Notes under the pieces: model-generated
What the model was told of the DNA's origin: nothing
Seen by the model: only the letters and a program-made list of their open reading frames with translations
Database searches by the model: none
DNA from: an uncultured Gemmatimonadota bacterium
GTDB taxonomy: Bacteria; JAAXHH01
Direction: 5' to 3'
Length of the DNA stretch: 64,000 nt
Assembly: GCA_951812955.1 (NCBI GenBank)
Contig: OX638340.1
Location: 128,001-192,000 of the forward strand
Translations under genes and position numbers: made by a program
Part shown: positions 14,417-63,299 of the stretch, piece after piece
Layout of the letters: every line of letters begins with the position of its first letter
How positions within the stretch are numbered: position 1 is the stretch's first letter

Positions 14417-14691
14417 GTAAGCTCTCCTTGGTACTGTTTTGCGGACTGCAGGCTCGAGGTTTCGTTCAGATAATCGATCCCTATTATATGCGGTAGCCAC
14501 CTCGAATGCAACAACCACGTTGACTGTCTACCGTCCCGCCCGGATGATTCGCGGAACCGGCCGCAATGCTGGAACTCCGCCCGCGTAGTGCAGAAATCGC
14601 TTGTAAACCGGTATCCGGACTCTTATAGTCTTTCCCATCCACTGCCATGCAGCATTACTCCACTGGACGATCTCGCACGCGGGAGGGACTC

Positions 14692-35096: not shown

Positions 35097-36104
35097 GTGC
35101 ACGGTTACATCATCGATAACAACCTGATTCGTCATGCTGAGCTTCCCGATCCGGTAGAGCCCGGTCCCGGCGAGGCGCTCGTCAAGGTCCGTTCCATTTC
35201 ATTGAACTACCGGGATCTCATGGTCGCCAGGGGCAGGTACGGAAGGCCGTATGAGGGTACGTTCGTCGCCGGTTCCGACATGGCGGGCGATGTGTTGGAC
35301 ACGGGGCCGGGGGTCGAGCACCTTCGGCCGGGCGACCGGGTGGTGAACGCGCCGTTCCTCGACTGGCCTGCCGGAAAACTCACAACCGACGGTATGATGA
35401 CCCTCGTAGGCGCAGGCGGCGTGGACGGCGTCCTGTGCGAACAGGTGCGCTATCCCGCGGCAGCCCTGGTCCACATGCCGTCCCATTTCTCCTATCACGA
35501 AGGCGCGACGCTGCCCATAGCCGGGCTGACCGCCTGGGCCTCGGTCGTGTCACAGGGTCATGTACTGGCCGGGGAGTGGGTCCTGCTTCACGGAACAGGC
35601 GGGGTTTCCGTGTTTGCCGCCCAACTGGCCAGGATCGCGGGCGCGCGGGCTTTGCTGACCACGTCTTCCAAAGAGAAAGCCGGCAGGATGAAGGCAGCAT
35701 TCGGCGTGGTGGAGACTTTCGATTACCGCGACGAAGACTGGCCCGAACGGGTCCGGTCTTTCACCGGGGGCACGGGGGTCGACCTGGTCGTGGACGTGGC
35801 CGGCGGCCAGACCTTCGCCAATTCCCTCAAGGCCTGTGCGCTGCATGCCCGGGTATCGCTCGTGGGCATCCTGGACGGCTTCGAAACCCGCCTCAACCCT
35901 TTCGATATTATCGGCCGGCAGATCCAGGTGCGCGGAATATACACTTCTTCGGCCGAAGACCTGCGCGACCTCGCAAGGGCGTGCGAGGCGTCGAAGCTCA
36001 GGCCCTGTATCGACCGCGTGTTTCCCTTCGACGAAGTTCCCGCAGCCTACGATTACCTTGAATCCCAGCGGCACATTGGAAAGATCGTGTGTGCGATGCC
36101 CTGA
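35097..36104 (+). CDS. Medium-chain dehydrogenase/reductase (quinone oxidoreductase/zinc-type ADH family)
   Basis: N-terminal GroES-like fold and a Rossmann GTGGVSVFAAQLA motif. Confidence 0.85.
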   Translation: MHGYIIDNNLIRHAELPDPVEPGPGEALVKVRSISLNYRDLMVARGRYGRPYEGTFVAGSDMAGDVLDTGPGVEHLRPGDRVVNAPFLDWPAGKLTTDGMMTLVGAGGVDGVLCEQVRYPAAALVHMPSHFSYHEGATLPIAGLTAWASVVSQGHVLAGEWVLLHGTGGVSVFAAQLARIAGARALLTTSSKEKAGRMKAAFGVVETFDYRDEDWPERVRSFTGGTGVDLVVDVAGGQTFANSLKACALHARVSLVGILDGFETRLNPFDIIGRQIQVRGIYTSSAEDLRDLARACEASKLRPCIDRVFPFDEVPAAYDYLESQRHIGKIVCAMP

Positions 36105-36334: not shown

Positions 36335-38563
36335 TCAGAGGAAACTCAGGTGGCGTTTCCTGTCGTTGACCCGTCCGATGCAGGCCGCCTGTTCGTATCC
36401 GGCGTCCCGGAGTTTCGCGATCACCTCTTCTTCCCGTGATGAAGGTACGCCGGCCAGAAGGCCTCCCGATGTCTGGGGATCGTAGAGGATGGCGTCTGCT
36501 ACGCCGGTTTCGGCCTCGACTTTCCACCTCTTCTGTAGATGTTCGCGGTTGGACGGCGCCAGCGTGCTTTCCACACCGGCCGCAATACACTCCTCGGTGC
36601 CCGCGTAACGGGGTATCCGATCTATTTCGAGCTCCGCGCTGGTGCCGCTGGCTTCGAGCATTTCGGCCAGGTGGCCCGCCAGGCCGAAGCCGGTCACGTC
36701 GGTGACTGCCGGAATCCCGACTTGCTTGAGGATGCTCGCCGCTTCACCGTTGGATTTCAGCATGCCCTCGAAGACCTCGTCGATCCAGGTGCCCTTCGCC
36801 TTCAGGTGCATGTCGGCTGCGAGTATGACTCCCGTGCCGACGGGCTTGGCCAAGATGATCCCGTCACCGGGACGCAGTCCGCCCTTTCTGAAAACCGAAT
36901 CGCTTCCGGCCAGACCGTTCATGGTCACGCTGACGGCCGTTTCCGAACCTTCGCTGGTATGGCCGCCCAGAAGCGTGATACGCAAGCGCCGCGCCTCTTC
37001 CGCGATCCCGCCCATGAGCTGTCTCAGATCGTTCGCCACGAGGTGTTTCTCCGCGTAGGGCAGGGTGACCGTAACGAGCGCCGAATGAGGTTCGGCCCCC
37101 ATGGCATATAGGTCGGACGCGGCGTGGACCAGGGCGATGCGGCCGAAGAGATGCAGGTCGCCTGTGAATGCGCGGAATCCGTCCACGGTCTGCACCAGCG
37201 ACCGGCCCGGAGGTATCTCCAGGAGCGCGGCGTCGTCGGCGTCATGCAGGCCGATCCGCACGTCCTCCCGGTCGAATACCTCCAGTTCATCGAGTACGCC
37301 GGTCAACACGGTCGAACCGACCTTGGCGCCGCACCCTGCACAGCGCATGGCGGCCTCGTCCGCGTCTCTGCCAGTTTCCTTACCGGAGGGCAGCGAATCG
37401 CCGGCCGGTTCCATGGGCGGCAGCAGCGAGGGATCGAACTTTCGCATCCACCGCTGGTCAATCCAGTTCTTCAGTCGCCATACCCACGCCCCATGGAATG
37501 AAATGTGGCGCCGGCTCGCGACGGCGTTCCGCGTACCGGTCATGAGCAGTGCGAGCGCCGAGGCCTGGGGCCTGAACGGAACCAGGGGGCGCTGCTCCAG
37601 CCATGCGTGGATATTCCGTGCGAGAATTGGCCCTTCCCGGACGGCGTATACCCCCGATTTAGGAAGGGGGCGTGACTCGAACTCGATGCAATCCCCCGCC
37701 GCGAAGACATTGTCGTAATCCATGGCCTGCAGCGTGGGGCGTACCCGGATGAAGCCGTTCCCGCTGGTTTCCAGGTTCGTCCGTTTCAGCAGGTCCGGCG
37801 ACGCTCCACCCGTGGCCCAGAGCAGGAAATCGCAGGGCAAGGATGAATGGTCCTCGAAATGGACGCCGTCCTCGTCCACCGCAGACACCCGAAGGCCCGT
37901 CAGGCACGTGATCCCCTTCTCTTCGAGATACCGCATGATCGTCCTGGCTACCCTGGGATTATGGCCGGTCAGCAAAGTGGACTGCGATTCCACAAGCGTG
38001 ATCTCTACCGGCGCGAAACGTACGCCCCACCTGGAGTGCATGGCGAAGGCCAGTTCCGCGCCGGCCGCACCGCCGCCCGCGATGACGATCCGCAGGGGTT
38101 GTCCGTCTGCGCGATAGTTTTTTTCGAACTGGTGAACCCTTCGCAGCAGCCTGCCGAGCGGTCTCGTGGGTACGGCGTTCTCACGCACGCCCGGGGTATC
38201 CAGGCCCCTGGGAATCGAACCGATATTGACCGATAGGGCATCGTAGGCCAGGGGCGGCCTGCCATCCTCGAAAAAAACCTGCTGGATTACGGGATCGATG
38301 GCGTCTACCCTTGCCCTAATGAACCGGATTCCCGCCCACGCGCACAGGGGCCTTAGTTCCATTTCCATTTCATCGGGTCGGTACAACCCGGCCAGGCAGC
38401 CGGGGAGCATTCCTGAATAGCAGACGCTGGATTCGTCTGAAATGAGCGTAACGCGGACGTCTCGAAGGGCTTTTTTCATGGTCAACATGCGGATTACCTG
38501 CACATGGGCGTGTCCGCCGCCGACCAGTACGAGGTCTTTCTTATAGGGTGATGCCTGGTTCAT
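36335..38563 (-). CDS. selD: Bifunctional fusion of an NADH-dehydrogenase-like FAD-dependent pyridine-nucleotide-disulfide oxidoreductase domain (N-terminus) with selenide, water dikinase SelD (C-terminus)
   Basis: The N-terminus has LVLVGGGHAH FAD-binding and later GGGAAG Rossmann motifs. The C-terminal half has the SelD N-terminal Cys/Lys motif (RCAGCGAKVG) and the AIR-synthase-like PurM fold. 742 aa. Confidence 0.8.
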   Translation of the reverse strand: MNQASPYKKDLVLVGGGHAHVQVIRMLTMKKALRDVRVTLISDESSVCYSGMLPGCLAGLYRPDEMEMELRPLCAWAGIRFIRARVDAIDPVIQQVFFEDGRPPLAYDALSVNIGSIPRGLDTPGVRENAVPTRPLGRLLRRVHQFEKNYRADGQPLRIVIAGGGAAGAELAFAMHSRWGVRFAPVEITLVESQSTLLTGHNPRVARTIMRYLEEKGITCLTGLRVSAVDEDGVHFEDHSSLPCDFLLWATGGASPDLLKRTNLETSGNGFIRVRPTLQAMDYDNVFAAGDCIEFESRPLPKSGVYAVREGPILARNIHAWLEQRPLVPFRPQASALALLMTGTRNAVASRRHISFHGAWVWRLKNWIDQRWMRKFDPSLLPPMEPAGDSLPSGKETGRDADEAAMRCAGCGAKVGSTVLTGVLDELEVFDREDVRIGLHDADDAALLEIPPGRSLVQTVDGFRAFTGDLHLFGRIALVHAASDLYAMGAEPHSALVTVTLPYAEKHLVANDLRQLMGGIAEEARRLRITLLGGHTSEGSETAVSVTMNGLAGSDSVFRKGGLRPGDGIILAKPVGTGVILAADMHLKAKGTWIDEVFEGMLKSNGEAASILKQVGIPAVTDVTGFGLAGHLAEMLEASGTSAELEIDRIPRYAGTEECIAAGVESTLAPSNREHLQKRWKVEAETGVADAILYDPQTSGGLLAGVPSSREEEVIAKLRDAGYEQAACIGRVNDRKRHLSFL

Positions 38564-38919
38564 GAATATCTCGAGTTAGAATCTTCATCGCGACGATCCA
38601 GCGAATATCGGGACGATTCCGGGAATTCGGCAATCTTTGGATGAGAACCCGCTTTGTACATCCCGATTGACCTGGTGATCACGTAACCACGCTAAAACGG
38701 ACGATATCGGGCGAATGCGAGCGAGTACGAAATATACAATGTAACATCAGGCGGTCAAAAGGCCATATTGAACCGAATGGTATGGGCCGTACGGGGACGA
38801 TTCCGTTGCCCGCTCAACCTTGACAGGCCCTGTAGATTAACCATGCGTGATCACCGTGTAAAAAGCGCGCATTCAAGCATGAATCGAAGTCGGAACAACA
38901 CCACTATAGAGGAGTTTAG

Positions 38920-39444
38920 ATGGCTTTCAATATCAAAAAACGCGGCAAACTGACCTACTATTACCACGGGGACAGCCCGGTGCTGTCGGCCCTGGTGACC
39001 GAAGAGCAGTCCGACGGCGACCTGAGGATCTATTTCGCCGGGCTGACGGGCGGCTATTCGGCCAAGGGCGTGCTGGAACGGGACGAGTTGGTCTCGATGG
39101 AACCGGAGCAGGAGATCCCCCTCGTGTTTCAGAGCTGGGAGAGGTGGCTGATCGACGCCGGACTGTGCAGTTCGCTCAGGGAAATCGATTTTATTGAGGT
39201 GCACGCCTTCGGATGCCAGCCCAAGTCTCCGAATCCCCTCGTGGACCCAATTGGGTACGCCGCGGAGCAGGACCGGCTAAAAGAAGCCTACGCCCGCGCG
39301 TACAGCGGGTTCTTCCGGGATTACCTGCCGGATAACGGGGTTCCATGCCGCTTCACGGTCCACCTCGTAGACGTGCCCGACAAGGCCGCGTCTTACGAAT
39401 TCTATTCCACGGCGCTCTGGCAACGGTCGCTGCAATCCGATTAG
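38920..39444 (+). CDS. Hypothetical protein (no family recognised)
   Basis: 174-aa ORF with a good RBS (GAGGAG, 5 nt, ATG). Its GC content is typical of coding sequence. Confidence 0.5.
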   Translation: MAFNIKKRGKLTYYYHGDSPVLSALVTEEQSDGDLRIYFAGLTGGYSAKGVLERDELVSMEPEQEIPLVFQSWERWLIDAGLCSSLREIDFIEVHAFGCQPKSPNPLVDPIGYAAEQDRLKEAYARAYSGFFRDYLPDNGVPCRFTVHLVDVPDKAASYEFYSTALWQRSLQSD

Positions 39445-39710: not shown

Positions 39711-40448
39711 ATGTCCGCGCGGTCCTCGCAGGAGGCGCTGGAAGCGCTGAAACAGTTCGATACGCCCTCGATTACGAACGTGGTGGCGACCTACCCGACC
39801 CACCCCCTCTGCCTGGGCCTGTACAATCCCTGGTCGGAGAACTGGTATACCGATCAGACCATCAAGTGCATCTATCCCGATCTCGGGCGCACCGTGGGCT
39901 ATGCCGTCACGTGCGTATTCGGTCTTCCCGAGCCGGGCTTCAAGAACCTTTCCTTCCTGGACGTGATCGATGCCCTGGACGCATCCCCGCAACCGACGAT
40001 TCTGGCAATCCAGCAGAAATTTCCCCCGGAGATCGCCGGCAAGGTGGGGCTCGCCGGCGGTAATATGACCGCTTCTGCCAAGGCGGTGGGATGTGTGGGG
40101 GTCGTCTCGAACGGACCCTCCCGCGATATCGACGAGATCCGCCCCATGAAGGTACAGTATCTGCTCAGCGGAATTACGCCGGGACATGGCGACATGGCCG
40201 TGCACGCGGTGAACGTGCCCGTATCCGTTGGCGGAATGGACGTGGCCCCGGGCGAGATCATCCACATGGACGAGAACGGCGCCTGCAAGTTCCCGGCCAA
40301 CAAACTGGACGCGGTGCTCGAAAACGCCACGGCGCTTGCGGTCGAGGAAGAGTCCCGCATCGCCGCCTTCCAAAGCGCGCGCAATGCCGACGATGTCCGG
40401 GCTATCCTGGGCGGACACAGCTACGGCAAGAAAGAAGAGGCTGAATGA
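39711..40448 (+). CDS. RraA-family protein (RNase E inhibitor / 4-hydroxy-4-methyl-2-oxoglutarate aldolase / demethylmenaquinone methyltransferase-like fold)
   Basis: RraA-like fold motifs (…AGGNMTASAKAVGCVGVV…GITPGHGDM…). The stop overlaps the next ATG (ATGA). Confidence 0.7.
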   Translation: MSARSSQEALEALKQFDTPSITNVVATYPTHPLCLGLYNPWSENWYTDQTIKCIYPDLGRTVGYAVTCVFGLPEPGFKNLSFLDVIDALDASPQPTILAIQQKFPPEIAGKVGLAGGNMTASAKAVGCVGVVSNGPSRDIDEIRPMKVQYLLSGITPGHGDMAVHAVNVPVSVGGMDVAPGEIIHMDENGACKFPANKLDAVLENATALAVEEESRIAAFQSARNADDVRAILGGHSYGKKEEAE

Positions 40449-41926
40449 AATGCGTCTTTGTCGTACTTGATACCGTCCGCCGGGACTTCCTGTCCTCATA
40501 CGGCAACGACTGGGTCCATACGCCGGCCCTCGACCGTCTGGCCGAGCGAGGCGTCGTTTTCGACAACCACTGGGTAGGTTCGCTTCCGTGCATGCCCGCG
40601 CGCCGGGAGTTCATGACCGGCAGGTACAACTTCATCTACCGGGGCTGGGGACCCATCGAGCCCTACGACGACACCCTGCCCGGCGAGTTGCGTAAGAACG
40701 AAGTATTCACCCACTTGCTGACCGATCATTACCACTATTTCGAACTCGGCGGCGAGAACTACCACACGGCCTTCAACACCTGGGACTTCTTCCGAGGCCA
40801 GGAAAACGACTGGTGGGCGTCCCACGTGGACCGGATGGCCCTGCCGGATCACCTGGGGCAGCTCACGCAGCAGAACTATGGCAACCGCAAGCTGCAGCAG
40901 CGGGAGGAAGACTTCTCCGGTCCCAAGACCGCGCAGGCGGCCATCGAGTGGCTGAAGTCGAACCAGGCGGCGGAGGACTGGTTCCTTCAGGTCGAGATCT
41001 TCGATCCCCACGAACCCTTCTATTGCACGGAGAAGTATAGGTCCATGTACGGGGACGATTACAAAGGCCCCTTTTACGACTGGCCGAGTTACGACGAAGT
41101 GCACGAGTCGCCGGAAGCCATAGACCACGTCCGGAAGTGCTATGCCGGGCTGCTTACGATGACGGACCACTGGGTCGGCAAGATCTTCGACACCCTCGAC
41201 GAACTTGGGTTGTGGGAAGATACCCTGGTCGTGTTCACCACGGATCACGGCACCATGCTGGCCGAGCATGATTTCTGGATGAAGAACATTATGCCGCTGT
41301 ACAACGAGATCGTCCGCATTCCCCTGATCGCCAGTCTGCCCGGCAACGAGAGAGCCGGAACGCGGACCGGCGCGCTCACGCAGACCATCGACCTGATGCC
41401 GACCTTTCTCGACTACTTCGATACACCGCCGCCGCCCCACGTGCAGGGTACGTCGTTGCGCGGGATGCTGGACGGCGAAGGCGTGCGATCGGACGGCATT
41501 TTCGGATATTTCGGCATGGCGATGAACATCACCGACGGCCGGTACGTGTACATGCGCAACCCGGTGAACGAGGATGCCGGCCCCCTCTACGCCTATACGG
41601 CCATGCCCACCGGCGGCCTGAACCGCTGGTATCCGCGGGAGGTGTACGACCGGGTGGAAACGGGCCGCTACTTCGGCCACACCTACAACCTGCCGCTGTA
41701 CAAGATCCCGACGGAGGGCAAGGTCCCGAGGCACCATCCAGACGAGGCGTCCTACGCGGGGCGCAACCAGCTGTTTGACGTGGTCGCCGATCCCGCTCAA
41801 CAGCACCCGATCGTCGATCCGGAACTGGAAAGGCATTTCACCGACGGGATTGCCCGGCACCTTGAAACCTGCGAGGCCATGCCGGAGCAGTTCGCCCGGC
41901 TCGGTATCGACCCGCCCGGCGCATAG
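40445..41926 (+). CDS. Cys-type sulfatase (formylglycine-dependent arylsulfatase family)
   Basis: Signature C-M-P-A-R-R-E-F-M-T-G-R (C-x-P-x-R-x4-T-G) and an N-terminal metal-binding DxxR…D motif. Confidence 0.9.
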   Translation: MKCVFVVLDTVRRDFLSSYGNDWVHTPALDRLAERGVVFDNHWVGSLPCMPARREFMTGRYNFIYRGWGPIEPYDDTLPGELRKNEVFTHLLTDHYHYFELGGENYHTAFNTWDFFRGQENDWWASHVDRMALPDHLGQLTQQNYGNRKLQQREEDFSGPKTAQAAIEWLKSNQAAEDWFLQVEIFDPHEPFYCTEKYRSMYGDDYKGPFYDWPSYDEVHESPEAIDHVRKCYAGLLTMTDHWVGKIFDTLDELGLWEDTLVVFTTDHGTMLAEHDFWMKNIMPLYNEIVRIPLIASLPGNERAGTRTGALTQTIDLMPTFLDYFDTPPPPHVQGTSLRGMLDGEGVRSDGIFGYFGMAMNITDGRYVYMRNPVNEDAGPLYAYTAMPTGGLNRWYPREVYDRVETGRYFGHTYNLPLYKIPTEGKVPRHHPDEASYAGRNQLFDVVADPAQQHPIVDPELERHFTDGIARHLETCEAMPEQFARLGIDPPGA

Positions 41927-42094
41927 CGTATTGCACGATGGAGGGATCCGTTGGGCGGTACGCGGAACGAGCAGGCCGGAAAAACCCAATACGCGGAACA
42001 AGCAGTACGCGGACCAAGCAGGCCAGAGCCTGCAAGGTACGAGCTGCGATAAATGGTTCGCTGTAACGAGTACGCAGATACAAGGGGTAAGCTG

Positions 42095-43891
42095 ATGATT
42101 CACCGCCTTCGTCGCCAGGCGCCGGTTTTCGTCGCGGCCGTACTTGCGCTGTCATTTCTGCAATGCGGCGCGCAGCCCGATCCTGATGAGACCGAAGAAG
42201 GCAGCGGCCCCCAGCTGTTGTTCGGTCAGACCGCGGAGATGAAAGAGGCTGCCCACGCCGCGTTGATGGAACGTCTTCCTGAAGATGCCGCGCCCCTGGA
42301 GTACCAGGTGTTCCGGTACATGGCCGCCGAACCCAAGAGCATGGACCAGGGCGTCTCGATTTACGTGGCCGGCGGCAGCGAATTCCACTTCGAAAGGCTC
42401 GCCATGTTCGGTGTGAATGGGGAGCTCATCCCGGGTGCGGCGGATTCCTGGGAGACCACGGAAGACGGGAAGACTTGGACCTTTCACCTGCGCCGGGACG
42501 CACGGTGGAGCGACGGACGGCCCGTCACCGCGCACGATTTCGAATACACCTTCAAGCGGTTCCTCCATCCGAACGCGGGCAACGTTTACGCCTTTCTCTA
42601 CTACGATATCAAGGGCGCCCGGGCATACAACCAGCGGGAAACGGACGATGTCGACACCGTGGGGGTCTGGGCCGTGGACGACTATACCCTGGTCATAGAG
42701 ACGGAACAATCCTGCGCCTTCCTGCCCCATATCACCGCCTACCTGACCTCCGCACCCGTTCCCCCGTGGCAGGTCGAGAAGTATGGGGACCAGTGGGCGC
42801 TCGCCGGCACCTGCCTGACCAATGGGCCCTTTCAACTCGAGACCTGGAAAACGGGCCAGTACATGACCTTCGGCCTGAATCCCCATTACTCCGGCCCCAA
42901 TCCCGGCCATCTCCGCCAGATCGTCCGCATATTCAACGCCATGGTTGGCTCGGTCAGCGCGTCGAACGACATGGGGCTGCTGCCCTACGAAAATGACGAG
43001 ATCGACGTAATCGATATCAGCCCCATGGTCTACGGCGGCCTGCGCGGCGACCCGGAGTGGAACGAACCCGCGTGGACTTACGACCAGTTCACGACGATCT
43101 ACCTTTTCTTCCGGACGCGTCAGCCCCCCTTCGACAACCTCAAGGTCCGCCAGGCCTTCGCCCATGCCATCGACAAAGTGTCGCTGAACGAGACGATTCT
43201 CCAGGACATGATGATTCCCGCCTATACCATGCTTCCGCTCCATTTCCCAGGTTACGTCGGGGATAAATACCAGGACCACCAGCGGTTCGACGTGGAACTC
43301 GCCCGGCAACTGCTCGCGGAGGCGGGTTATCCGGACGGCAGGGGTTTTCCGCGGATGGATATCTGGCTCGCCGACGCGACGCCCGCTTCTTCCATCAGCC
43401 AGGCTGCCCAGGCGTTACAGGAGATGCTCAAGGAGAATCTGAATATCCAGATCGGCATCCGGAACACGGAAGGGGCCGCGTACCGGTCGGCCATGTACAA
43501 CTGGGACATGCCCATGAGCATCGTCGGTTTCAACTACGACTTCCCCGATCCCCATAGCATGCTCGGCATCATCTGGCGATCACAGCCCAGGGGCTATACC
43601 CGCCACGACTGGCTGAATCCGGCCTTCGACCGGCTGATCGACATGGCTGCCGGGGAGCTGCATCACGAGGCCCGCATGGCCATGTACGACGAGGCCGAAG
43701 GGATTCTCGCCTCCGAGGCCGCCGCGGTCTTCCTGTGGCATGTCAATACCTACCAGTTGCGCAAGCCGTGGTTGAAGGGGTTCAAGGAAGACCGGTGGGG
43801 CAATTTTCCCAATTACCGGAACGCGGGCACGTATTACGACCTCTACATTGGGAAAGAGGCCGTGGAAAGCGATCGCCGCATTGATTACTGA
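42095..43891 (+). CDS. ABC transporter substrate-binding protein, family 5, lipoprotein-type signal; paralog of 30283..31953
   Basis: MIHRLRRQAPVFVAAVLALSFLQCG lipobox-like signal. ~600 aa SBP_bac_5 fold. The ORF opens at 42053. Confidence 0.8.
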   Translation: MIHRLRRQAPVFVAAVLALSFLQCGAQPDPDETEEGSGPQLLFGQTAEMKEAAHAALMERLPEDAAPLEYQVFRYMAAEPKSMDQGVSIYVAGGSEFHFERLAMFGVNGELIPGAADSWETTEDGKTWTFHLRRDARWSDGRPVTAHDFEYTFKRFLHPNAGNVYAFLYYDIKGARAYNQRETDDVDTVGVWAVDDYTLVIETEQSCAFLPHITAYLTSAPVPPWQVEKYGDQWALAGTCLTNGPFQLETWKTGQYMTFGLNPHYSGPNPGHLRQIVRIFNAMVGSVSASNDMGLLPYENDEIDVIDISPMVYGGLRGDPEWNEPAWTYDQFTTIYLFFRTRQPPFDNLKVRQAFAHAIDKVSLNETILQDMMIPAYTMLPLHFPGYVGDKYQDHQRFDVELARQLLAEAGYPDGRGFPRMDIWLADATPASSISQAAQALQEMLKENLNIQIGIRNTEGAAYRSAMYNWDMPMSIVGFNYDFPDPHSMLGIIWRSQPRGYTRHDWLNPAFDRLIDMAAGELHHEARMAMYDEAEGILASEAAAVFLWHVNTYQLRKPWLKGFKEDRWGNFPNYRNAGTYYDLYIGKEAVESDRRIDY

Positions 43892-44050
43892 GGCACCCGG
43901 CGATGATCGCGCCCGGCCTTCGGATCGCGTCCTGCGACTATCACGCTCGGCCTCCGGATTGACTGCGTGTTTCGCATAGAAGCATCGGTTTTTCCTGAGG
44001 CTTGCAGATTGACCACAGAACGTCGATAAAGAAAACGGACAGGCTCACCC

Positions 44051-44875
44051 ATGGAAAACGAACACCAGTACGCCAAGATGACCGACGCGCAGCGTGAGCA
44101 TCTGGACCAGTACGGCTATCTGGTTATCGAAGACGCGTTGCCCCCAGCCGTTGTAGGCGAGTTGAACGCAGGCATCGACGAAGTGTACGACAGAGCCTGG
44201 AACGAAGGCAAGCTGGGGGATAAAGACGATCTGAACTTGCGGAACTGCATTGTGGCACACGACGCCTTTCTTCAGTTGCTCGACTGGCCGGCGACGATCC
44301 CGCTGGCCTGGGGCGCGCTCAGCTGGAACATCCAGATGATCACCTCCCACCTGATCGTGCTTCCGTCCGGACCGGAACCCTCCGAGGAGGCCAAGCGCGG
44401 GCATGGCATGCACCGCGACGGCGGCCGTTCCTTCGTCGAAATGCAAGAGCCCCATCCCCGCATCCTGCTGAAGATCGCCTACGTACTCAGCGACCAGACG
44501 GACCCGGCATCGGGCGCCACGGCCCTGGTGCCCGGCAGCAACCGGATCACGGGAGAACCGCCGCGGGATCCGGCCACTGGATGGCCATATGGCGCTATCC
44601 AGATGAACCTGCCCGCCGGAAGCGCCTTCCTGTTCGAACAGCGCACCTTTCACAGCATCGGGAAGAACTGGTGCGGCCAGGACCGCCGGACCATCTTCAT
44701 GGGGTATGCCTACCGCTGGGTAAAGCCCATGGACTATATCCAGATGCCGAAGTCGCTCGTGGACCGCTGCACTCCCCTGCAGAAGCAGTTGATCGGCGAA
44801 GTGGGCGACGCACTGAGCTACTATCTGCCGGAGGAAGAGGACGTTCCCCTCAAGGCGTATCTGGAAGGGAAATGA
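44051..44875 (+). CDS. PhyH-family Fe(II)/2-oxoglutarate dioxygenase
   Basis: PhyH-like motifs (DQYGYLVIEDALP…HRDG…). Confidence 0.75.
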   Translation: MENEHQYAKMTDAQREHLDQYGYLVIEDALPPAVVGELNAGIDEVYDRAWNEGKLGDKDDLNLRNCIVAHDAFLQLLDWPATIPLAWGALSWNIQMITSHLIVLPSGPEPSEEAKRGHGMHRDGGRSFVEMQEPHPRILLKIAYVLSDQTDPASGATALVPGSNRITGEPPRDPATGWPYGAIQMNLPAGSAFLFEQRTFHSIGKNWCGQDRRTIFMGYAYRWVKPMDYIQMPKSLVDRCTPLQKQLIGEVGDALSYYLPEEEDVPLKAYLEGK

Positions 44876-44884
44876 GGTCCGCAC

Positions 44885-46240
44885 ATGGCCAATGTCCTCC
44901 TGCTCATGTCCGACGAGCACAATCCGTTCTACGCTTCAGTCTACGGCCATTCCTTCGTGCATACCCCGGCCATGGACCGGCTCGCGGAGAACGGGGTCGT
45001 CTACGAGAGCGCCTACTGTCCCTCGCCCCTGTGCACGCCCAGCAGGTCCGCCTTCATGTCGGGACGCCGGGTCCACCAGATACAGGCCTATTCCAACTGC
45101 ACAATCGGCGTGGAGCCGGATATACCGACCTATGGACGCGCCCTGGCCGAACAGGGGGTTCATTCCGTGCACGTGGGCAAGACCCACGTTTACGCTCCGA
45201 GCAGTGGACTGGGATTCCGTGAGACGCGGAACGCCGTGGAGAATATGGGCGCCGGCGATCTGGAAATCGGCCGCCGTCCTTTCCGTATCAGGCGAGCGGC
45301 CGCGGAACGGGCCACCCAGTTCGGCGTGAAAGCATCGCATCTCCGGGTCGACCTGGACCGCGTCGACGCCGCCATAGACTGGATATCAAATACCGCGCCG
45401 ACCCTGGATACGCCGTGGACGCTCTCGGTAAACATCATCCATCCCCACTTCCCCCACTATACGTCGCAGGAACTCTGGGATCTCTATCCGCAAGGCGGCG
45501 ATCTGCCGGAGTACGGGACGGATCGGGAGACTGCGAACCACCCCAGGGCACGGGAAGTCAGGGAGCACTTCCAGACGGACGCGTTCACCGAGGAACAGGT
45601 ACGGGGACAGCGGCGGGGATACCTGGCGTGCGTGACGTTCGTGGACCGGCAGCTGGCGCGGCTTATCGAAGCGCTGAAGGCATCGGGACAATACGACGAT
45701 ACGAATGTCATTTACACGTCGGACCACGGCGAAATGCTTGGAAAGTTCGGCATGTGGTGGAAGTGTTCTCTCTACGAAGACGCGAGCCGGATCCCATGCA
45801 TCGCGGCGGGACCCGATTTTCCTGCGGATCTGCGCGTGTCGACGCCGGTGGACCTCCACGATGTACAGGCGAGCCTCTTCGAATCGACCGGCGCCGACCG
45901 TCCAATCGACTGGGTGGGGCGGCCTCTGCAGAACATGCCCGAACAGGATGACCAGCGCGTCGTTTTCTCCGAATACCATGGCCACGGCGTTCGCCAAAGT
46001 GCCTTCATGATCCGAAAAGGCAGATGGAAGTACATTCACCACCTTAACGCGCCGCACCAACTGTTCGACCTGGACCGGGATCCCGATGAACTGCAGAACG
46101 TGCATGGCGCGTGCGCCGAGGTGGCCGCAGACCTGGAGCGGGAGCTCCGCGCGATCTGCGATCCGGAAGTGGAGAACGACCGCGCGGATCGATTCATTGA
46201 AACGCAACTTGCGTCCATGTCGTCGAGTGGCCCATCGTAG
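44885..46240 (+). CDS. Cys-type sulfatase
   Basis: Signature C-T-P-S-R-S-A-F-M-S-G-R and the N-terminal LLLMSDEHN motif. Confidence 0.9.
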   Translation: MANVLLLMSDEHNPFYASVYGHSFVHTPAMDRLAENGVVYESAYCPSPLCTPSRSAFMSGRRVHQIQAYSNCTIGVEPDIPTYGRALAEQGVHSVHVGKTHVYAPSSGLGFRETRNAVENMGAGDLEIGRRPFRIRRAAAERATQFGVKASHLRVDLDRVDAAIDWISNTAPTLDTPWTLSVNIIHPHFPHYTSQELWDLYPQGGDLPEYGTDRETANHPRAREVREHFQTDAFTEEQVRGQRRGYLACVTFVDRQLARLIEALKASGQYDDTNVIYTSDHGEMLGKFGMWWKCSLYEDASRIPCIAAGPDFPADLRVSTPVDLHDVQASLFESTGADRPIDWVGRPLQNMPEQDDQRVVFSEYHGHGVRQSAFMIRKGRWKYIHHLNAPHQLFDLDRDPDELQNVHGACAEVAADLERELRAICDPEVENDRADRFIETQLASMSSSGPS

Positions 46241-46285
46241 CGAGCCCATCGTAACAAGCCCATCTGAATAAGCAAACGGAGCGAA

Positions 46286-47695
46286 ATGAGCGGGAAACGA
46301 TTGCTAGGAATCACCGTTCTGGCCGACTTCATCCTGAACGAGGGGGTGGAGTCCGTGCTGGACAATCTCGTCGAACGGGCCGGCGCCACAGCCGTGGCGC
46401 TGAACCCCACGGTGACCGCGCCGTCGGAGGAGGGGGCCGGTTCCTTCCAGCCACCCACCGACGCCGGAAGCAGTCCAAGGCTCTTCGATCGTCCCCTGTG
46501 GGGCCGGCGCTCGCTCTGGGTCCGTAGCGCGCCCAGTTATCACCCCCGAACCTCGTACTATGCCGATACTCCGTACAAGCCCCGCGCGCCGAACGAGTTG
46601 ACCGACGAGCATGGCGATCTGGTCGGACGATTCATCGACGCGGCCCTGGACCGGGGACTCAAGGTCTACCTGCAGTTGAGCGGCGCGACGCCACCCGGAC
46701 TCCTGGACGACGACCGGCCGCGACGGCCGGACGGACAACTGCCGGACCGCATGGCCGACACGGGATGTCTCGCCAGCGAGGCGATCCGGGCTTACATCGC
46801 GGCCTACGTGCGCGACCTGTTGGAGCAGTACCCTCGGATTACAGGATTCCGGCCGGACTGGCCCGAGTATCCCTGTTACAAGCTGGACGAAGCCTTTCAG
46901 GATTTCAATCCACAGGTGGCGCACTGGGCGGCGGCCCATGGATTCGACTACGCGTCCATACACCGGGAGGTCCTGGCGGCGTTCGAATATCTGCACGGAC
47001 GGCTCGAGAACGGTGATCTGCTGGACTTCAGCGGTCCCGGCCGGGGCACGGCGACGCTGGCTGAACTGCTCCGTTCCTCACCGGGTATCGTGGAGTGGAT
47101 GCGCCTTAAGTCCGCCCTGTCCAACGACCTGCTGCGCCACTGGAGGACCGTCGTCACGGACCATGGCGGACCCGAAATGGAGCTGTCTGCCAACGCCTTC
47201 ATGCTTCCGCTCACCCTGTGGACGGGCTTCGATTTCCGTGAAGCGGCGAAACTCTGCGACGCCCTGTCTCCCAAGCTGTATACCATGCACTGGTCGGTCA
47301 TGGTGGAATTCTGGGGGCGGGTACTCCTGAAGCACAATCCCGGCCTGGACGAGCGGCTTCTGGTGCGTTCGCTCGCCCATCTCTTCGACCTGGGCGATGA
47401 AATCACGGCCACACGCATCGATCAATACAGGTATCCCGATCCCGACGAGCCCCATCCCATTCCCGACAACGTCCAGAGTCGGCGGATCGAGCAGGTCTGC
47501 GCCGAAGTGAACGGCCGCGCGTTGGTCACCCCGCTGATGCACGGTTACGGCCCGCACCACGACTTCGTCCGGCGTTTCAGGGTGGTGGCGGAAAGCCCGG
47601 CCGATGGCGTATGGATCAATCGTTACGGGTACCTCAGCGACGAAAAGCTGGATGCGGTGGGGCGCATATGGCGGCGAGCAGACCGAGCAACTTGA
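46286..47695 (+). CDS. Hypothetical protein embedded in the sulfatase locus (no family recognised; possibly a TIM-barrel hydrolase-like fold)
   Basis: 469-aa ORF with a coding-like composition. It sits between two sulfatase genes. Confidence 0.5.
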   Translation: MSGKRLLGITVLADFILNEGVESVLDNLVERAGATAVALNPTVTAPSEEGAGSFQPPTDAGSSPRLFDRPLWGRRSLWVRSAPSYHPRTSYYADTPYKPRAPNELTDEHGDLVGRFIDAALDRGLKVYLQLSGATPPGLLDDDRPRRPDGQLPDRMADTGCLASEAIRAYIAAYVRDLLEQYPRITGFRPDWPEYPCYKLDEAFQDFNPQVAHWAAAHGFDYASIHREVLAAFEYLHGRLENGDLLDFSGPGRGTATLAELLRSSPGIVEWMRLKSALSNDLLRHWRTVVTDHGGPEMELSANAFMLPLTLWTGFDFREAAKLCDALSPKLYTMHWSVMVEFWGRVLLKHNPGLDERLLVRSLAHLFDLGDEITATRIDQYRYPDPDEPHPIPDNVQSRRIEQVCAEVNGRALVTPLMHGYGPHHDFVRRFRVVAESPADGVWINRYGYLSDEKLDAVGRIWRRADRAT

Positions 47696-47745
47696 CGGCG
47701 CCTGCTGGACGAGGTGGGCCGCATCTGGCGGCGCACTCGAAAGGA
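47647..47745. repeat. Two imperfect tandem copies (~57 bp) spanning the 3' end and stop of the hypothetical gene
   Basis: Copy 1 encodes LDAVGRIWRRADRAT*. Copy 2 (ctggacgaggtgggccgcatctggcggcgcactcga) would encode LDEVGRIWRRTR. Confidence 0.7.
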
Positions 47746-47750
47746 AACCA

Positions 47751-49277
47751 ATGACCCGGCCCAACATCCTGTTCATCATGACGGACCAGCAGCGCTTCGA
47801 TACCATCGCCGCGCTGGGGAACGACGTCATCCACACGCCTAACATGGATCGCCTGGTGCGCCGGGGCGTTTCCTTTACCCGGGGCTACTCGACCTGCCCC
47901 GTCTGTGTGGCGGCGCGGACGACCATCCGCACCGGTTGTGATCCGCCCACTACCCGCGTATTCAGTAACAGCCGGTCCGCTCCTGTGCCAGGCCAGGCCG
48001 GTACGCTTGAAGGCCGGTGCGGGGACTATCTTGCACGTACCCTGTCGGCGATGGGCTACCGAACCTTCGGCGTGGGAAAGTTCCACACGGCCCCATGGGA
48101 TGAAGACATCGGATATGAATCCCAGCTGCATAGCGAGGAGCTTTACGCCAGCCCGCGTCAGCGTCGGGAGGAAGCCTACGCGGGATGGATTGCGCGGGAA
48201 CATCCGGAATTCGACTATATCGAAGCGCTCATGGGGGAACGGACTGAGATGTACTACATGCCCCAGGCGAGTCCGCTGCCCGCCCACCTGACCTTGGAAT
48301 CCTGGGCGGCCGACCGCTCGATCGAGGCATTGCAGCAACCCGGCGATCGGCCGTTCTTCGGCTTCGTGTCCTTCATCGGTCCTCATCCGCCCTTTGCGCC
48401 GCCTGTACCCTTCAATCGGATCTACGATCCCGACCGTATGCCCGGTCCGGTTCGGGGCGAAAAGGCGGTGGACCACATGGACGAGCAGATACCCTACATG
48501 AACCGGATCATCTGGGCGGACGAGATCAACGATGCCTTGACACGGACTCTAAAGGCCCGTTATTACGGAGAGATCACCTACATCGACGATTGCCTGGGAC
48601 GGATACTGGATGCCGTCGAGGCCAGGGCGGACGCCAATGATACGCTCATCTGCTTTTTCTCGGACCACGGCGACCATCTCGGCGACCATACGGCTTGGCA
48701 AAAGGAGAGTTTCTTCGACGTTTCGGCACGGGTGCCTTTCCTGGTAAGCTGGCCCGCCCGGCTTCCGCGGGATGTCCGCCGAGACGACCTGGTCTGCCTG
48801 ACCGATCTGTTTGCCATCGCCACCCATGCCGCCGGACAGACCCAGGTCCGCGACGGTGTCGACGTACTCGGCGCAATCGAAGGCAGCGTCTCGCCGAGGG
48901 AGCACCTCTTCGGATATTACGGCGAGCCGGGAACGGACCGGTTCAAAATCATGGTCCGAAGCGAAGACTGGAAATACATTTACCTGGCCAACGGAGGTGG
49001 GGAGCAACTCTTCAATACGGCCGAAGACCCCGCCGAGATCGCGAACAGGATCGAGACCGATCGGGACGTGGCGGACGGTCTGTATCGCTGTGCAGTGGAA
49101 GCATGTGGCCATCCAGGCGCTTCCGGTGCCCTGGTTGGCAAGAACCTGAGGTCCTTTCCCTACACCAGGTGGAAGGCCTCGCGGATATACCAGTTCGACC
49201 GCTCGCGGGATGTGCGGGGGTTTCCCGGTCATCCCAGCGAAGTGTTGGGTCCCTGGATCCGTCGCGGCCGCAGATAA
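47751..49277 (+). CDS. Sulfatase with a variant active-site motif C-V-A-A-R-T-T-I-R-T-G (Pro replaced by Ala)
   Basis: ILFIMTDQQRFD metal-binding N-terminus. The motif keeps the R(+4) and TG(+9/+10) spacing but has Ala at +2. The ATG at 47751 is preceded by AAGGAA. The ORF opens at 47604. Confidence 0.85.
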   Translation: MTRPNILFIMTDQQRFDTIAALGNDVIHTPNMDRLVRRGVSFTRGYSTCPVCVAARTTIRTGCDPPTTRVFSNSRSAPVPGQAGTLEGRCGDYLARTLSAMGYRTFGVGKFHTAPWDEDIGYESQLHSEELYASPRQRREEAYAGWIAREHPEFDYIEALMGERTEMYYMPQASPLPAHLTLESWAADRSIEALQQPGDRPFFGFVSFIGPHPPFAPPVPFNRIYDPDRMPGPVRGEKAVDHMDEQIPYMNRIIWADEINDALTRTLKARYYGEITYIDDCLGRILDAVEARADANDTLICFFSDHGDHLGDHTAWQKESFFDVSARVPFLVSWPARLPRDVRRDDLVCLTDLFAIATHAAGQTQVRDGVDVLGAIEGSVSPREHLFGYYGEPGTDRFKIMVRSEDWKYIYLANGGGEQLFNTAEDPAEIANRIETDRDVADGLYRCAVEACGHPGASGALVGKNLRSFPYTRWKASRIYQFDRSRDVRGFPGHPSEVLGPWIRRGRR

Positions 49278-49391
49278 GAGGCGACACGGCCGCAGATAAG
49301 AATCAGGGTGACCGGAGTTTGTCTCGGTTTTCCCCGCAATATCATTCTTGGGAATCCGCGCTCGAATCGACGAAGAGGAAGAGTTCATATC

Positions 49392-50738
49392 GTGAACCCC
49401 GTTGATACATCCACCGCAGTCCCGGCATCGGCCATGCCTTCCGCCGGAGGCGACCCGGTCCCCGTCCCGGCGTTCCACGTGATGATGAAACCCCGGGGGG
49501 CCATCTGCAATCTCGATTGCAAGTACTGCTACTTCCTCGCGAAGGAGGACCTGTACCCGGGCAGCGGATTCCGCATGTCCGAAGACCTGCTCGAAGAATA
49601 CATCCGGCAGTACATCGAGGCCCAGCAGGTACCGGAAGTCACCTTTGCCTGGCAGGGCGGCGAGCCCACGCTCATGGGACTGGACTTCTTCCGCAAAGCC
49701 GTTGAATTCCAGAAAAAACACCAGAAACCGGGAACGCGGCTATTCAACTCGCTGCAGACCAACGGTACGCTCCTCGACCGGGACTGGTGCCAGTTCTTTC
49801 ATGAAAACGACTTCCTGATCGGTCTTAGCCTGGACGGCCCCCGGGCGCTGCACGACGCCTACCGGGTCGACAAGGGCGGCAAACCGACCTTCGACACCGT
49901 AATGCGCGCCGCCGAGATGATGCAGTCCCACGAGGTCGAATTCAACATACTGACCACGGTGCACGCGGCGAACGCGGGGCACCCCGTCGAAGTCTATCGC
50001 TTCATGCGGGACGTGGTGAAGACCCGCTTTATCCAGTTCATTCCTATCGTGGAGCGGGACAACGAGACAGGGTACCAGGAAGGCAACGAAGTGACGAACC
50101 GGTCGGTGACGGGGAAGCAGTACGGCCGGTTCCTGATCGGGATTTTCGACGAATGGGTACGCCGGGACGTGGGGAATATGTACGTGCAGATATTCGACGT
50201 GTCGCTCGCTGCCTGGTCGGGCCAGAGCCCGGGTCTCTGCATATTCATGGAGACCTGCGGCGATGCCCTCGCCCTGGAGCACAACGGGGATCTATATTCC
50301 TGTGATCACTATGTCGAACCGGATTACAAGCTGGGGAATATCGCCGAAATACCCATGATGGATATGGTCCTGTCCGATCAGCAGCGGGCCTTTGGACAGG
50401 CCAAACTGGACACGCTTCCGCAATACTGCCTGTCATGCGACGTGCGGTTCATCTGCAACGGGGGTTGTCCGAAGAATCGTATCATAAACACGCCCGACGG
50501 CGAACCGGGCCTGAACTACCTGTGCGAGGGGTACAAGGCCTTCTTCCACCACATCGACGGTCCCATGCAATTTATGGCCAATGAACTGCGCAACCGGCGG
50601 GCTCCCGCCAACGTGATGTCGTACATCCGCCAGCGCGAATCCGAACTTCGGAAACAGCAGCAGTTTCAATCGGTGGGGCGAAACGATCCCTGTCCTTGCG
50701 GAAGCGGCCTGAAGTACAAGCGGTGCCACGGAAGGTAG
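49392..50738 (+). CDS. Anaerobic sulfatase-maturating enzyme (radical SAM/SPASM), with a C-terminal SEC-C metal-binding motif
   Basis: CNLDCKYCYF (Cx3Cx2C) and SPASM Cys clusters (CLSCDVRFICNGGCP). C-terminal DPCPCGSGLKYKRCHG. GTG at 49392 follows GAGGAAGAG by 8 nt. An alternative ATG lies at 49434. Confidence 0.85.
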   Translation: MNPVDTSTAVPASAMPSAGGDPVPVPAFHVMMKPRGAICNLDCKYCYFLAKEDLYPGSGFRMSEDLLEEYIRQYIEAQQVPEVTFAWQGGEPTLMGLDFFRKAVEFQKKHQKPGTRLFNSLQTNGTLLDRDWCQFFHENDFLIGLSLDGPRALHDAYRVDKGGKPTFDTVMRAAEMMQSHEVEFNILTTVHAANAGHPVEVYRFMRDVVKTRFIQFIPIVERDNETGYQEGNEVTNRSVTGKQYGRFLIGIFDEWVRRDVGNMYVQIFDVSLAAWSGQSPGLCIFMETCGDALALEHNGDLYSCDHYVEPDYKLGNIAEIPMMDMVLSDQQRAFGQAKLDTLPQYCLSCDVRFICNGGCPKNRIINTPDGEPGLNYLCEGYKAFFHHIDGPMQFMANELRNRRAPANVMSYIRQRESELRKQQQFQSVGRNDPCPCGSGLKYKRCHGR

Positions 50739-59434: not shown

Positions 59435-59842
59435 ATGTACCTGGAAGCAGCCTCTGTCGACCGATCTATCTGGTTATCCCGAATCGACTACATGTCATAC
59501 CTTCCCCTTATCCTGCTCGTCCTGCTTGTCCTGATCGTCGCGGCCGTAATCATTACCCTTTCTACTTTCATAGGCAGAAAAAAAACGAGCGCCTCCAAGC
59601 TTGCGTCCTACGAATGCGGTGTTCCGCTTCAGGACTCCGCCCGGAAGAGCTTCTCCGTCAAGTTCTACCTGATCGCAATCCTTTTCATTCTTTTTGACGT
59701 GGAGATCATTTACCTCTACCCATGGGCCGTCGTTTATGGCGATCTTCAGGTATTCGGCGCATTAGCCATGGGGGTGTTCTTTCTGATGCTTGTCATCGGA
59801 TTCCTGTACGAATGGAAACGGGGAGCCCTGGAATGGGATTAG
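59435..59842 (+). CDS. nuoA: NADH-quinone oxidoreductase subunit A
   Basis: [10 protein letters not shown]…[24 protein letters not shown] NuoA signature. Start is ATG at 59435, or the alternative ATG at 59492. Confidence 0.85.
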
Positions 59843-60303
59843 AAGACCAGCTTCAGGAAAACGTCATGACCACCAAGGTCGACGCGATGGTCGGCTGGGC
59901 CCGGAAAAATTCGCTCTGGCCGATGCCTTTCGGCACCGCCTGTTGCGCCATCGAACTCATGGCGACGCTGGCCTCCCGGTTCGACCTGGCCCGTTTCGGA
60001 GCCGAAGCCATACGGTTTTCCCCCCGGCAGTCCGATCTGCTGATCGTTTCCGGGAGGGTTTCCATCAAGATGATGCCCGTACTGAAGACGATCTACGACC
60101 AGATGCCGGAACCCAAGTGGGTCGTCTCCATGGGAGCCTGTGCCTCCTCTGGCGGCGTATTCAATACCTATACGCTAGTGCAGGGCGTTGACCAGTATAT
60201 CCCGGTGGATGTGTATATCCCGGGTTGTCCCCCCAGGCCCGAAAACGTGATCCAGGCGTTGATGAAGATCCAGGAGAAAGTGGCCCAGGCCAAAGCGAAC
60301 TGA
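59833..60303 (+). CDS. nuoB: NADH-quinone oxidoreductase subunit B
   Basis: The Cys ligands of the N2 [4Fe-4S] cluster are present (…CCAIELM…GACASSGG…CPP). The start overlaps the nuoA stop. Confidence 0.9.
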
Positions 60304-60944
60304 TGAACAGAAAATCCATCGCAGAGCTTCTGCTCGACATCAAAGCAGTCACCATCAACGTCGAAGCCCCCTACCATTACAGTTCCGGTATAATATCTCC
60401 TATATATTGCGATAACCGCCTGATCATATCCTGTCTGGAAGAGCGCAAGGTGATCGTCGACGCATTTATCGAGATCATCGACGCCCTCGAAGTTTCGCCG
60501 GATGTCATCGCGGGAACGGCGACCGCCGCCATCCCATTCGCGGCGTGGGTATCGAACCGCCTGGACCTGCCCATGGTCTATGCGCGTTCGGGACAGAAAG
60601 GCTACGGCAAGGAACACCGGGTCGAGGGCACCCTGGTCCCCGGTCAGAAGGTGCTTTTCACCGAAGACCTGGTCACCACGGGTGGGGGCGTGCTGAAAGC
60701 GGTCGAAGACGTGGTCAGGTTCGACGTGGAGGTGATCGGCGTGGCCACCATTTTCGAGTACGGCCTGCCCGCCGCCACGGAGGGATTCCAGAAGGCCGGT
60801 CTGCCGAAATGGAGCATGGCGGACTTCGTGGCCATTCTGGACGTCATGAGTGAGCGGGGCGAGCTTTCGGACGACAGTAGAGACATCGCAATGGACTGGC
60901 AATCGGATCCCAGGGGCTGGGGCAGCAAGATGGGTTTCGAATAA
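60303..60944 (+). CDS. pyrE: Orotate phosphoribosyltransferase
   Basis: Type-I PRTase PRPP-binding motif (VLFTEDLVTTGGGV) and an OPRTase-like N-terminus. The ATG overlaps the nuoB TGA (TGATG). Confidence 0.8.
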   Translation: MNRKSIAELLLDIKAVTINVEAPYHYSSGIISPIYCDNRLIISCLEERKVIVDAFIEIIDALEVSPDVIAGTATAAIPFAAWVSNRLDLPMVYARSGQKGYGKEHRVEGTLVPGQKVLFTEDLVTTGGGVLKAVEDVVRFDVEVIGVATIFEYGLPAATEGFQKAGLPKWSMADFVAILDVMSERGELSDDSRDIAMDWQSDPRGWGSKMGFE

Positions 60945-60955
60945 AGGGGATTGAA

Positions 60956-61492
60956 GTGGAGAACCAGGAGGAACGCCAGACCGAGGGCGTTGATCCGCAG
61001 GAGCCGGACCAGGGCGAGGTAACGGCGCGAATCCGGGCCCGGTTCGTCGACGCGTCGGTCCGGCGCGGCAACGCGGTGGGGTGCGAGAGTGTCATCGCCG
61101 AGCTGGATTCGCTTCACCCGTTCATGACCTTTCTGAGAGACGATCCGGAATTGGCTTTCGATTATCTCGTCGACGTGACCGCCGTGGACCGGTTGAAGCT
61201 CGACGAGGCCATCCGTTACGCCGTAGTCTACCAGCTGTATTCCTACAAATTCAACCGCCGTTTCAGCGTAAGCGTTCCCGTTCCGGAAGCAGACCCCCGG
61301 ATCGAGTCGGTGGTGTCTGTCTGGCCTGGCGCGAACTGGCTGGAACGGGAAGTGTACGACATGTACGGGATCGTCTTCGACGGCCATCCCGACCTGCGCC
61401 GCATCCTGATGCCGGACGACTTCGGCTCGCATCCCCTGAGGAAGGACTATCCCCTTCACGGCAAAGGGGAAAGGGACAACTTCGTTTTCTAG
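60956..61492 (+). CDS. nuoC: NADH-quinone oxidoreductase subunit C
   Basis: NuoC/30-kDa subunit motifs (…WLEREVYDMYGIVFDGHPDLRRIL…). GTG start follows AAGGGGA by 5 nt. Confidence 0.85.
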   Translation: MENQEERQTEGVDPQEPDQGEVTARIRARFVDASVRRGNAVGCESVIAELDSLHPFMTFLRDDPELAFDYLVDVTAVDRLKLDEAIRYAVVYQLYSYKFNRRFSVSVPVPEADPRIESVVSVWPGANWLEREVYDMYGIVFDGHPDLRRILMPDDFGSHPLRKDYPLHGKGERDNFVF

Positions 61493-63296: not shown

Positions 63297-63299
63297 CGC

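Follow-up and report, generated by a model that had tools for sequence, protein, structure and literature searches.

The 64,000 nucleotides analyzed here (positions 128,001 to 192,000 of contig OX638340.1, hereafter the window) come from an uncultured Gemmatimonadota bacterium. On the minus strand they carry a gene whose single product joins an NADH-dehydrogenase-like (Ndh) flavoprotein to selenophosphate synthetase (SelD). The gene is an ordinary member of the Ndh-SelD fusions, a known and very common marine form that has its own curated model, TIGR03169. It is very probable that the product is a bifunctional selenophosphate synthetase, the flavoprotein half of which is proposed to reduce selenium. 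Its sequence shows the C-terminal half, which keeps the catalytic loop and four aspartates, to be a Cys-type SelD, predicted to make selenophosphate from ATP and reduced selenium. The N-terminal half is by sequence a flavoprotein that binds flavin adenine dinucleotide (FAD) and NAD(P)H, with the fold of a type II NADH dehydrogenase (NDH-2) and without a conserved cysteine. As a discovery the gene carries little weight, since the fusion has been catalogued and the selenium-reducing role proposed for it has been published; as an annotation it is useful, because it probably points to selenium use in this lineage.

The features of the gene are listed below in window coordinates, each with its basis in brackets.

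36335..38563, minus strand: the whole Ndh-SelD fusion gene (list of open reading frames, ORFs; Pfam and NCBIfam architecture; single ORF in relatives)
37436..38539, minus strand: NDH-2-like flavoprotein domain, residues 9-376 (TIGR03169/Pyr_redox_2; match to 4nwz; Foldseek)
38504..38521, minus strand: GGGHAH, residues 15-20, presumed FAD site (G15, G17, and H18 invariant in 66 homologues)
38399..38419, minus strand: YSGMLPG, residues 49-55, signature of the fused flavoprotein family (Y49, S50, G51, M52, and P54 invariant in 66 homologues)
38054..38077, minus strand: GGGAAGAE, residues 163-170, presumed NAD(P)H site (G163, G165, G168, and E170 invariant)
37349..37435, minus strand: 29-residue inter-domain linker, residues 377-405, DPSLLPPMEPAGDSLPSGKETGRDADEAA (gap-rich and length-variable in the alignment; predicted disordered)
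36338..37348, minus strand: SelD (selenide, water dikinase) domain, residues 406-742 (TIGR00476; match to 3u0o; Foldseek)
37322..37342, minus strand: catalytic loop CAGCGAK, C408-A-G-C411-G-A-K414 (alignment to E. coli SelD)
37124..37126, minus strand: codon of His480, the residue aligned with the catalytic Asn87 (alignment to E. coli SelD)
38731..38758, minus strand: tentative promoter-like site, TTGACC-16-TATATT, some 170 nt before the ATG (consensus scan only)

The Ndh-SelD Family

Ndh-SelD fusions were described around 2008 (PMC2432076, PMC2398784), and the hypothesis that the fused domain is a reductase for selenium was stated by Zhang et al. 2008 (PMC2432076). The Global Ocean Sampling data contained hundreds of them, about 40% of the Cys-type SelDs, all with a CxxC that under 5% of single-domain SelDs share; Zhang and Gladyshev 2008 called their function “not fully clear” (PMC2398784). 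According to Mariotti et al. 2015 (PMC4561486), the NADH-dehydrogenase-like fusion is “by far the most common” one of SelD, its partner domain is always N-terminal and its SelD always of the Cys type, and it has reached protists by horizontal transfer. The same authors found selenoproteins or selenocysteine (Sec) machinery in the genomes that carry it and predicted that it retains selenophosphate synthetase activity. A first-pass annotation of the window, made from the sequence alone, did not recognize the fusion as this well-documented, very common marine form, and its idea, that a dedicated reductase might supply reduced selenide or regenerate the SelD Cys, is essentially the hypothesis of 2008 and not a new one.

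Gene and Reading Frame

The gene is an intact minus-strand ORF of exactly 742 codons, running from an ATG to a TGA stop at 36335-36337, with a base composition of the coding type (G+C of 0.75 at third codon positions, GC3, against 0.47 at second positions, GC2). The first-pass annotation had described a single 742-residue polypeptide, which this bears out, and had named a frameshift or an assembly join between two separate genes as what would overturn it. The comparative data, that is, homologues and shared gene order, rule such a join out. Accordingly, the notion that the long ORF is an artefact, with two neighboring genes merged through a frameshift in sequencing or a faulty assembly, has in our judgment a negligible probability. 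No support for it was found, the sole oddity being that the gene call of the relative P0005 starts at an internal Met and is 16 residues shorter. Against it, the unbroken ORF recurs at more than 50 independent loci and across dozens of independent assemblies and phyla, the residues that precede the P0005 start, GGGHAH included, are kept in other relatives, and the predicted template modeling score (pTM) of 0.91 obtained with AlphaFold2 denotes a coherent two-domain fold.

P0005 itself is 92% identical to the window protein (loci L001-L003 of our neighborhood set, gene start 10001) and is called from MQVIRML..., whereby it loses the GGGHAH FAD motif. The short call is probably a start error of the gene caller and not a true difference. 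In the 356-bp divergent intergenic region upstream of the fusion, three promoter-like sites were found against 1.1 expected from shuffled sequences, which does not imply function.

Domain Architecture and Predicted Structure

Pfam places Pyr_redox_2 at residues 9-311 (E 1.5e-32), with Pyr_redox nested in the same half at residues 158-234, followed by AIRS at 443-551 (4.4e-21) and AIRS_C at 564-737 (1.4e-19). This is the Pyr_redox_2 plus AIRS/AIRS_C architecture that the first-pass annotation had foreseen. In the NCBIfam scan of the 742-residue protein, TIGR03169 (“Nterm_to_SelD”) scores 389.8 bits over residues 10-376 (cutoff 310) and the selD equivalog TIGR00476 scores 258.1 bits over residues 406-709 (cutoff 125); no NDH-2 equivalog model was passed. 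Sequence matches to the PDB fall likewise on either half: NDH-2 4nwz at residues 8-373 (E 2e-25), and E. coli SelD 3u0o at residues 408-730 (E 1.6e-40) together with the Aquifex SelD 2yye. The N-terminal half displays the two-Rossmann FAD/NADH fold of an NDH-2, with GxGxxG motifs at residues 15-20 and 163-168. A TIGR03169 N-terminal domain and a C-terminal Cys-type SelD with a CxxC loop, the combination by which an Ndh-SelD fusion is recognized, are found here on the same polypeptide. Both halves are as they had been read from the sequence at first: a two-dinucleotide-binding flavoprotein with GGGHAH and GGGAAG, now supported by Pfam, TIGR03169, and the 4nwz match, and a SelD with Cys-Gly-Ala-Lys near its N-terminus, now supported by TIGR00476, AIRS/AIRS_C, and the alignment to the E. 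coli enzyme.

TIGR04369 (‘fusion_not_SelD’) also aligns with the protein, end to end over residues 13-727, with 458.3 bits. Membership in this family was rejected, as the score lies far below the curated cutoff of 700 while the TIGR00476 cutoff is passed.

The AlphaFold2 model, built on 66 homologues, has a mean predicted local distance difference test (pLDDT) of 89.9; residues 387-405 of the linker have a pLDDT below 50 and are predicted to be disordered. With Foldseek, the N-terminal half gives a TM-score of 0.82 normalized to 4nwz, with about 389 of the 394 NDH-2 residues aligned, and it also resembles sulfide:quinone oxidoreductases (SQRs). The C-terminal half gives TM-scores of 0.75-0.86 normalized to the SelD structures 2zau, 2zod, and 3u0o. 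No PDB chain found with Foldseek covers both halves.

Active-Site Residues and a Clade Signature

Conservation was read from 66 fusion homologues of 43-91% identity. C408 and C411, which form the CxxC, are invariant (66/66), and no other cysteine of the protein is; of the six in the flavoprotein half, none is conserved, the best being C292 with 41 of 66. The segment C411-G-A-K414 aligns to C17-G-C-K20 of E. coli SelD, with C411 at the place of Cys17 and K414 at that of Lys20, and is invariant. The same holds for D444, D461, D484, and D622, the equivalents of the metal/ATP-binding residues D51, D68, D91, and D227 of the E. coli enzyme. The CxxC is present in all fusion loci in which the loop could be read, against none of 16 Cys-type stand-alone SelDs, and this reproduces the finding of Zhang and Gladyshev 2008 (PMC2398784); a CxxU occurs in 3 of 14 Sec-type SelDs.

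A second position sets the fusions apart. In E. coli SelD it is Asn87, a conserved asparagine that catalysis requires (PMC4210487). All 30 stand-alone SelDs examined (within L054-L083) have Asn there, whereas the fusions have His: all 66 homologues, and all fusion loci (L001-L053 and L084-L091) except L035. We found no mention of this signature in the literature searched. We read His480 as a trait of the subfamily and not as a loss of function.

Relatives and Gene Neighborhoods

A look-up of the exact sequence of the window protein gave no record, and the lineage was placed from homologues of 91-92% identity. A protein search gave 6,946 matches at E ≤ 1e-10. The best 120 of these are nearly all full-length and of the same Pfam architecture, and about 50 of the 120 are 69-92% identical, of the same length, and located on independent contigs. 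Gemmatimonadetes metagenome-assembled genomes (MAGs) are the closest named relatives among the matches listed. The order of genes around the fusion (sulfatase, RraA-like, 174-aa hypothetical, fusion, zinc-type alcohol dehydrogenase (Zn-ADH), GDSL lipase, PhyH, EPSP synthase) is shared by the window and three independent assemblies carrying a 92% identical gene, and it is also found in relatives of 61% and 83% identity. In a scan of reference genomes with one genome per species, in which the closest Gemmatimonadota genomes were not among the matches listed, there are at least about 45 full-length fusions from many phyla. The taxa listed include Alpha-, Beta-, and Gammaproteobacteria, Cyanobacteria, Acidobacteriota, Binatia, Longimicrobiales, and Pirellulaceae.

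Neighboring genes were clustered around 45 fusion loci. The tRNA 2-selenouridine synthase gene mnmH/selU directly adjoins the fusion in 20 of them (NF008751, 494 bits), and senB, for the selenosugar synthase of selenoneine formation, lies beside it in seven (TIGR04348, 394 bits; L006, L007, L008, L009, L015, L016, and L024), so that selU or senB neighbors the fusion in 27 of the 45. At least two of the senB loci also contain senA (NF041186, 473 and 534 bits, cutoff 420):

L008: fusion at about 9965-12265; senB at 12237-13199, minus strand; senA at 13228-14541
L015: fusion at about 582-2855; senB at 3447-4406, minus strand; senA at 4541-5839

SenC, a homologue of SelD, provides SenB with selenophosphate (Kayrouz et al. 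2022, bioRxiv 10.1101/2022.04.13.486033), and in these two complete selenoneine clusters the fusion-type SelD would take its role. No mention of this association of fusions with sen clusters was found in the literature searched. The selenoneine literature searched contains no statement of whether the characterized Variovorax SenC is a fusion. Because selU or senB/senA adjoin fusion loci, the fusion appears to supply selenophosphate in other bacteria, for the selenouridine and selenoneine pathways at least. In the neighborhoods examined of relatives of 50-92% identity, no selenium gene adjoins the fusion.

Two other neighbors recur. A convergent gene for a Zn-ADH/PIG3-like NAD(P)H quinone oxidoreductase (35097-36104, plus strand) lies directly downstream of the fusion in the window and stays next to it in L001, L084, L086, and L090, the neighborhood of L086 (55% identity) being otherwise different. 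The pairing may be a functional link or merely lineage inertia. In 10 Rhodobacterales loci (L032-L046 and L053; e.g., L043:6020-6643), a gene of about 207 codons directly follows the fusion in the same orientation; its product has no NCBIfam match.

Selenium Use and the SelD Half

Several points weigh against the reading of the protein as a bifunctional selenophosphate synthetase with a selenium-reducing flavoprotein half. No biochemical study of any Ndh-SelD fusion was found in the literature searched. The residue at the position of the catalytic Asn of SelD is His480, and since this position is His in the fusion subfamily, the kinase chemistry may differ in detail. The CxxC loop is modeled at low confidence (pLDDT 50-75). 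The N-terminal domain is an almost complete NDH-2 fold, down to the first amphipathic C-terminal helix (residues 359-375), and the electron path from the flavin to the CxxC or to selenium is one that we purely infer. In addition, Pfam scans of roughly 50 genes of the window reveal no selA, selB, selU (ybbB), senA, senB, yqeB, yqeC, or sirA-like gene; for selA, selB, and ybbB, the first-pass annotation had already said so.

Other scans of the window also gave nothing bearing on selenium. It contains no tRNA, and hence no tRNA-Sec, in a tRNA scan, and no Rfam match, the selenocysteine insertion sequence (SECIS) included. A scan for in-frame TGA codons returned no credible selenoprotein gene, the six candidates being explained as adjacent genes in the same frame or as antisense shadows.

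These absences are shared ground with a different view, that the C-terminal half is not a working selenophosphate synthetase at all and is a SelD-like paralogue acting on sulfur or some other substrate (compare TIGR04369 and the archaeal SelD-like family), in which case the gene would be no marker of selenium use. The His at the Asn87 position and the sizeable TIGR04369 score would fit it as well. However, that score remains far below its cutoff while the true SelD model is passed, and the catalytic Cys, the Lys, and all four Asp are invariant. Moreover, the same CxxC and His type of fusion adjoins selU or senB/senA in 27 of the 45 loci, and Mariotti et al. 2015 saw selenoproteins or Sec machinery in fusion-bearing genomes, as described above. 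Because of the curated-model scores and the selU/sen neighborhoods of the same subfamily, we regard a function outside selenium metabolism as very unlikely. The first-pass annotation took the gene to mark its host as a selenium user. This is a reasonable reading: the family, with its selU and senB neighbors and the observations of Mariotti et al. 2015, argues for it, but the window itself has no selenium genes. The lineage, with Gemmatimonadetes MAGs as its closest named relatives, probably uses selenium.

Role of the Flavoprotein Half

What would an NDH-2-like flavoprotein do when fused to SelD? In the bifunctional enzyme that we favor, the flavin would be reduced by NAD(P)H and would pass reducing equivalents to selenium held on the mobile N-terminal loop of the SelD domain; alternatively, the acceptor may be the CxxC of this loop (C408/C411), as a disulfide or a selenenyl-sulfide. 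Selenide would then be made, or kept reduced, at the kinase active site and would not diffuse freely, an arrangement that would be of advantage to aerobic marine bacteria, in whose surroundings free selenide is unstable. The selenophosphate produced would enter whichever pathway the genome has, be it selenocysteine, tRNA 2-selenouridine, or selenoneine.

The N-terminal domain could instead act as a quinone-linked enzyme of the NDH-2 or SQR type, and not as a soluble NAD(P)H-dependent selenium reductase. Its electron exchange would in that case connect the membrane quinone pool with the selenium/CxxC site, as in oxidizing excess selenide or in using quinol. The nearest structures are indeed membrane-peripheral NADH:quinone oxidoreductases (4nwz, 5na1, and Ndi1) and SQRs (3hyv and 3sz0), 3sz0 having been solved with selenide bound. 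The near-complete alignment with NDH-2 reported above extends through a conserved amphipathic helix at residues 359-375, WVWRLKNWIDQRWMRKF, in which K365, I368, and D369 are invariant among the 66 homologues. With so much of the NDH-2 fold kept, a role linked to quinones or to the membrane has to be entertained. On the other hand, the NAD(P)H motif, the second of the two Rossmann motifs, is conserved throughout (G163, G165, G168, and E170); SQR catalysis requires conserved flavoprotein cysteines and residues 1-376 contain none; and the linker and SelD follow the first amphipathic helix, the only one kept, in place of the last membrane-anchor segment of NDH-2. On balance, we consider the quinone-linked role unlikely.

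It is tempting to go beyond the bifunctional reading and to propose that fusion-type SelDs are a mechanistically distinct, self-contained machine converting oxidized selenium to selenophosphate. Electrons would run from NAD(P)H through FAD to the CxxC, as selenenyl-sulfide or disulfide, and the change from Asn87 to His would retune the kinase site for loop-bound selenium in place of free selenide; such a machine could serve selenouridine, selenoneine, and selenocysteine synthesis in oxic seawater. We offer this as a speculation that we ourselves find doubtful. Experimental handles on the family are offered by the invariant CxxC, by the His that this clade has in place of Asn87, and by the recurrent pairing with selU or selenoneine genes.

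Other Genes in the Window

Divergent from the fusion, across the 356 bp mentioned above, lies the gene of the 174-aa hypothetical protein (38920-39444, plus strand), which has neither a Pfam nor an NCBIfam match. A 469-aa hypothetical protein without a Pfam match is encoded at 46286-47695 on the plus strand. The positions of both genes are kept in the relatives L001, L084, and L090.

A sulfatase-rich cluster extends over 39711-50738 and includes an RraA-like gene, an SBP_bac_5 binding protein, and PhyH dioxygenases. Four sulfatases are counted in it (40445-41926, 44885-46240, and 47604-49277, with the 469-aa hypothetical protein between). Also encoded there, at 49308-50738, is a radical-SAM/SPASM protein that carries a SEC-C motif at its C-terminus and resembles an anaerobic sulfatase-maturating enzyme. 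At the end of the window, the start of a nuo (complex I) operon occupies 59435-64000 on the plus strand, with nuoA at 59435-59842, nuoB at 59722-60303, and then nuoC, nuoD, nuoE, and nuoF. A phosphoribosyltransferase-domain ORF is found between nuoB and nuoC (60225-60944, E 6.7e-11).

Comparison with Known Systems

Stand-alone SelDs (E. coli 3U0O and Aquifex aeolicus 2YYE/2ZOD) share with the window protein the AIRS/AIRS_C fold, the Cys-x-x-Lys loop, and the four aspartates, at about 27-30% identity. The window protein differs from them in a flavoprotein extension of about 400 residues, in an extra Cys three residues before the catalytic one, and in His for Asn87. With the NDH-2 of Caldalkalibacillus thermarum (4NWZ) and with SQRs (3HYV and 3SZ0) it has in common the two-Rossmann fold and both GxGxxG motifs. 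Identity to these enzymes is about 25%, the terminal membrane anchor is missing, and a YSGMxPG motif and the fused SelD are added. The flavoprotein domain also lacks the catalytic cysteines of the SQR type, by which an SQR would be recognized.

NifS-SelD fusions (Geobacter sp. FRC-32 and protists; Mariotti et al. 2015) resemble the window protein in having an enzyme of selenium delivery or processing N-terminal to SelD. They differ in that their partner is a pyridoxal phosphate-dependent cysteine desulfurase, their loop is a GxGCACK without CxxC, and Asn87 is kept. These fusions were earlier reported as rare. In our set, genes of the NifS-SelD type occur in L054 (about 2328-4616), L064, L074, and L083, from MAGs of Calditrichaceae, Lentimicrobiaceae, Zixibacteria, and Caldisericaceae. 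In each, the SelD match is preceded by 390-441 in-frame codons, which in L054 encode a NifS/IscS-like cysteine desulfurase (TIGR03402, 499 bits, short of the cutoff of 530.75).

The TIGR04369 proteins have the same two-module layout, but the window protein matches the true SelD model and keeps the Cys and the Lys. As for SenC, a fusion of the window type occupies its position in L008 and L015, whereas the window itself has no senA or senB. Finally, we find nothing substantive in which the gene is unlike the published Ndh-SelD fusions, apart from its not lying beside a selenium-pathway gene. It is like them in domain order, in its Cys-type SelD, in its CxxC loop, in an apparently marine bacterial origin, and in passing both curated models.

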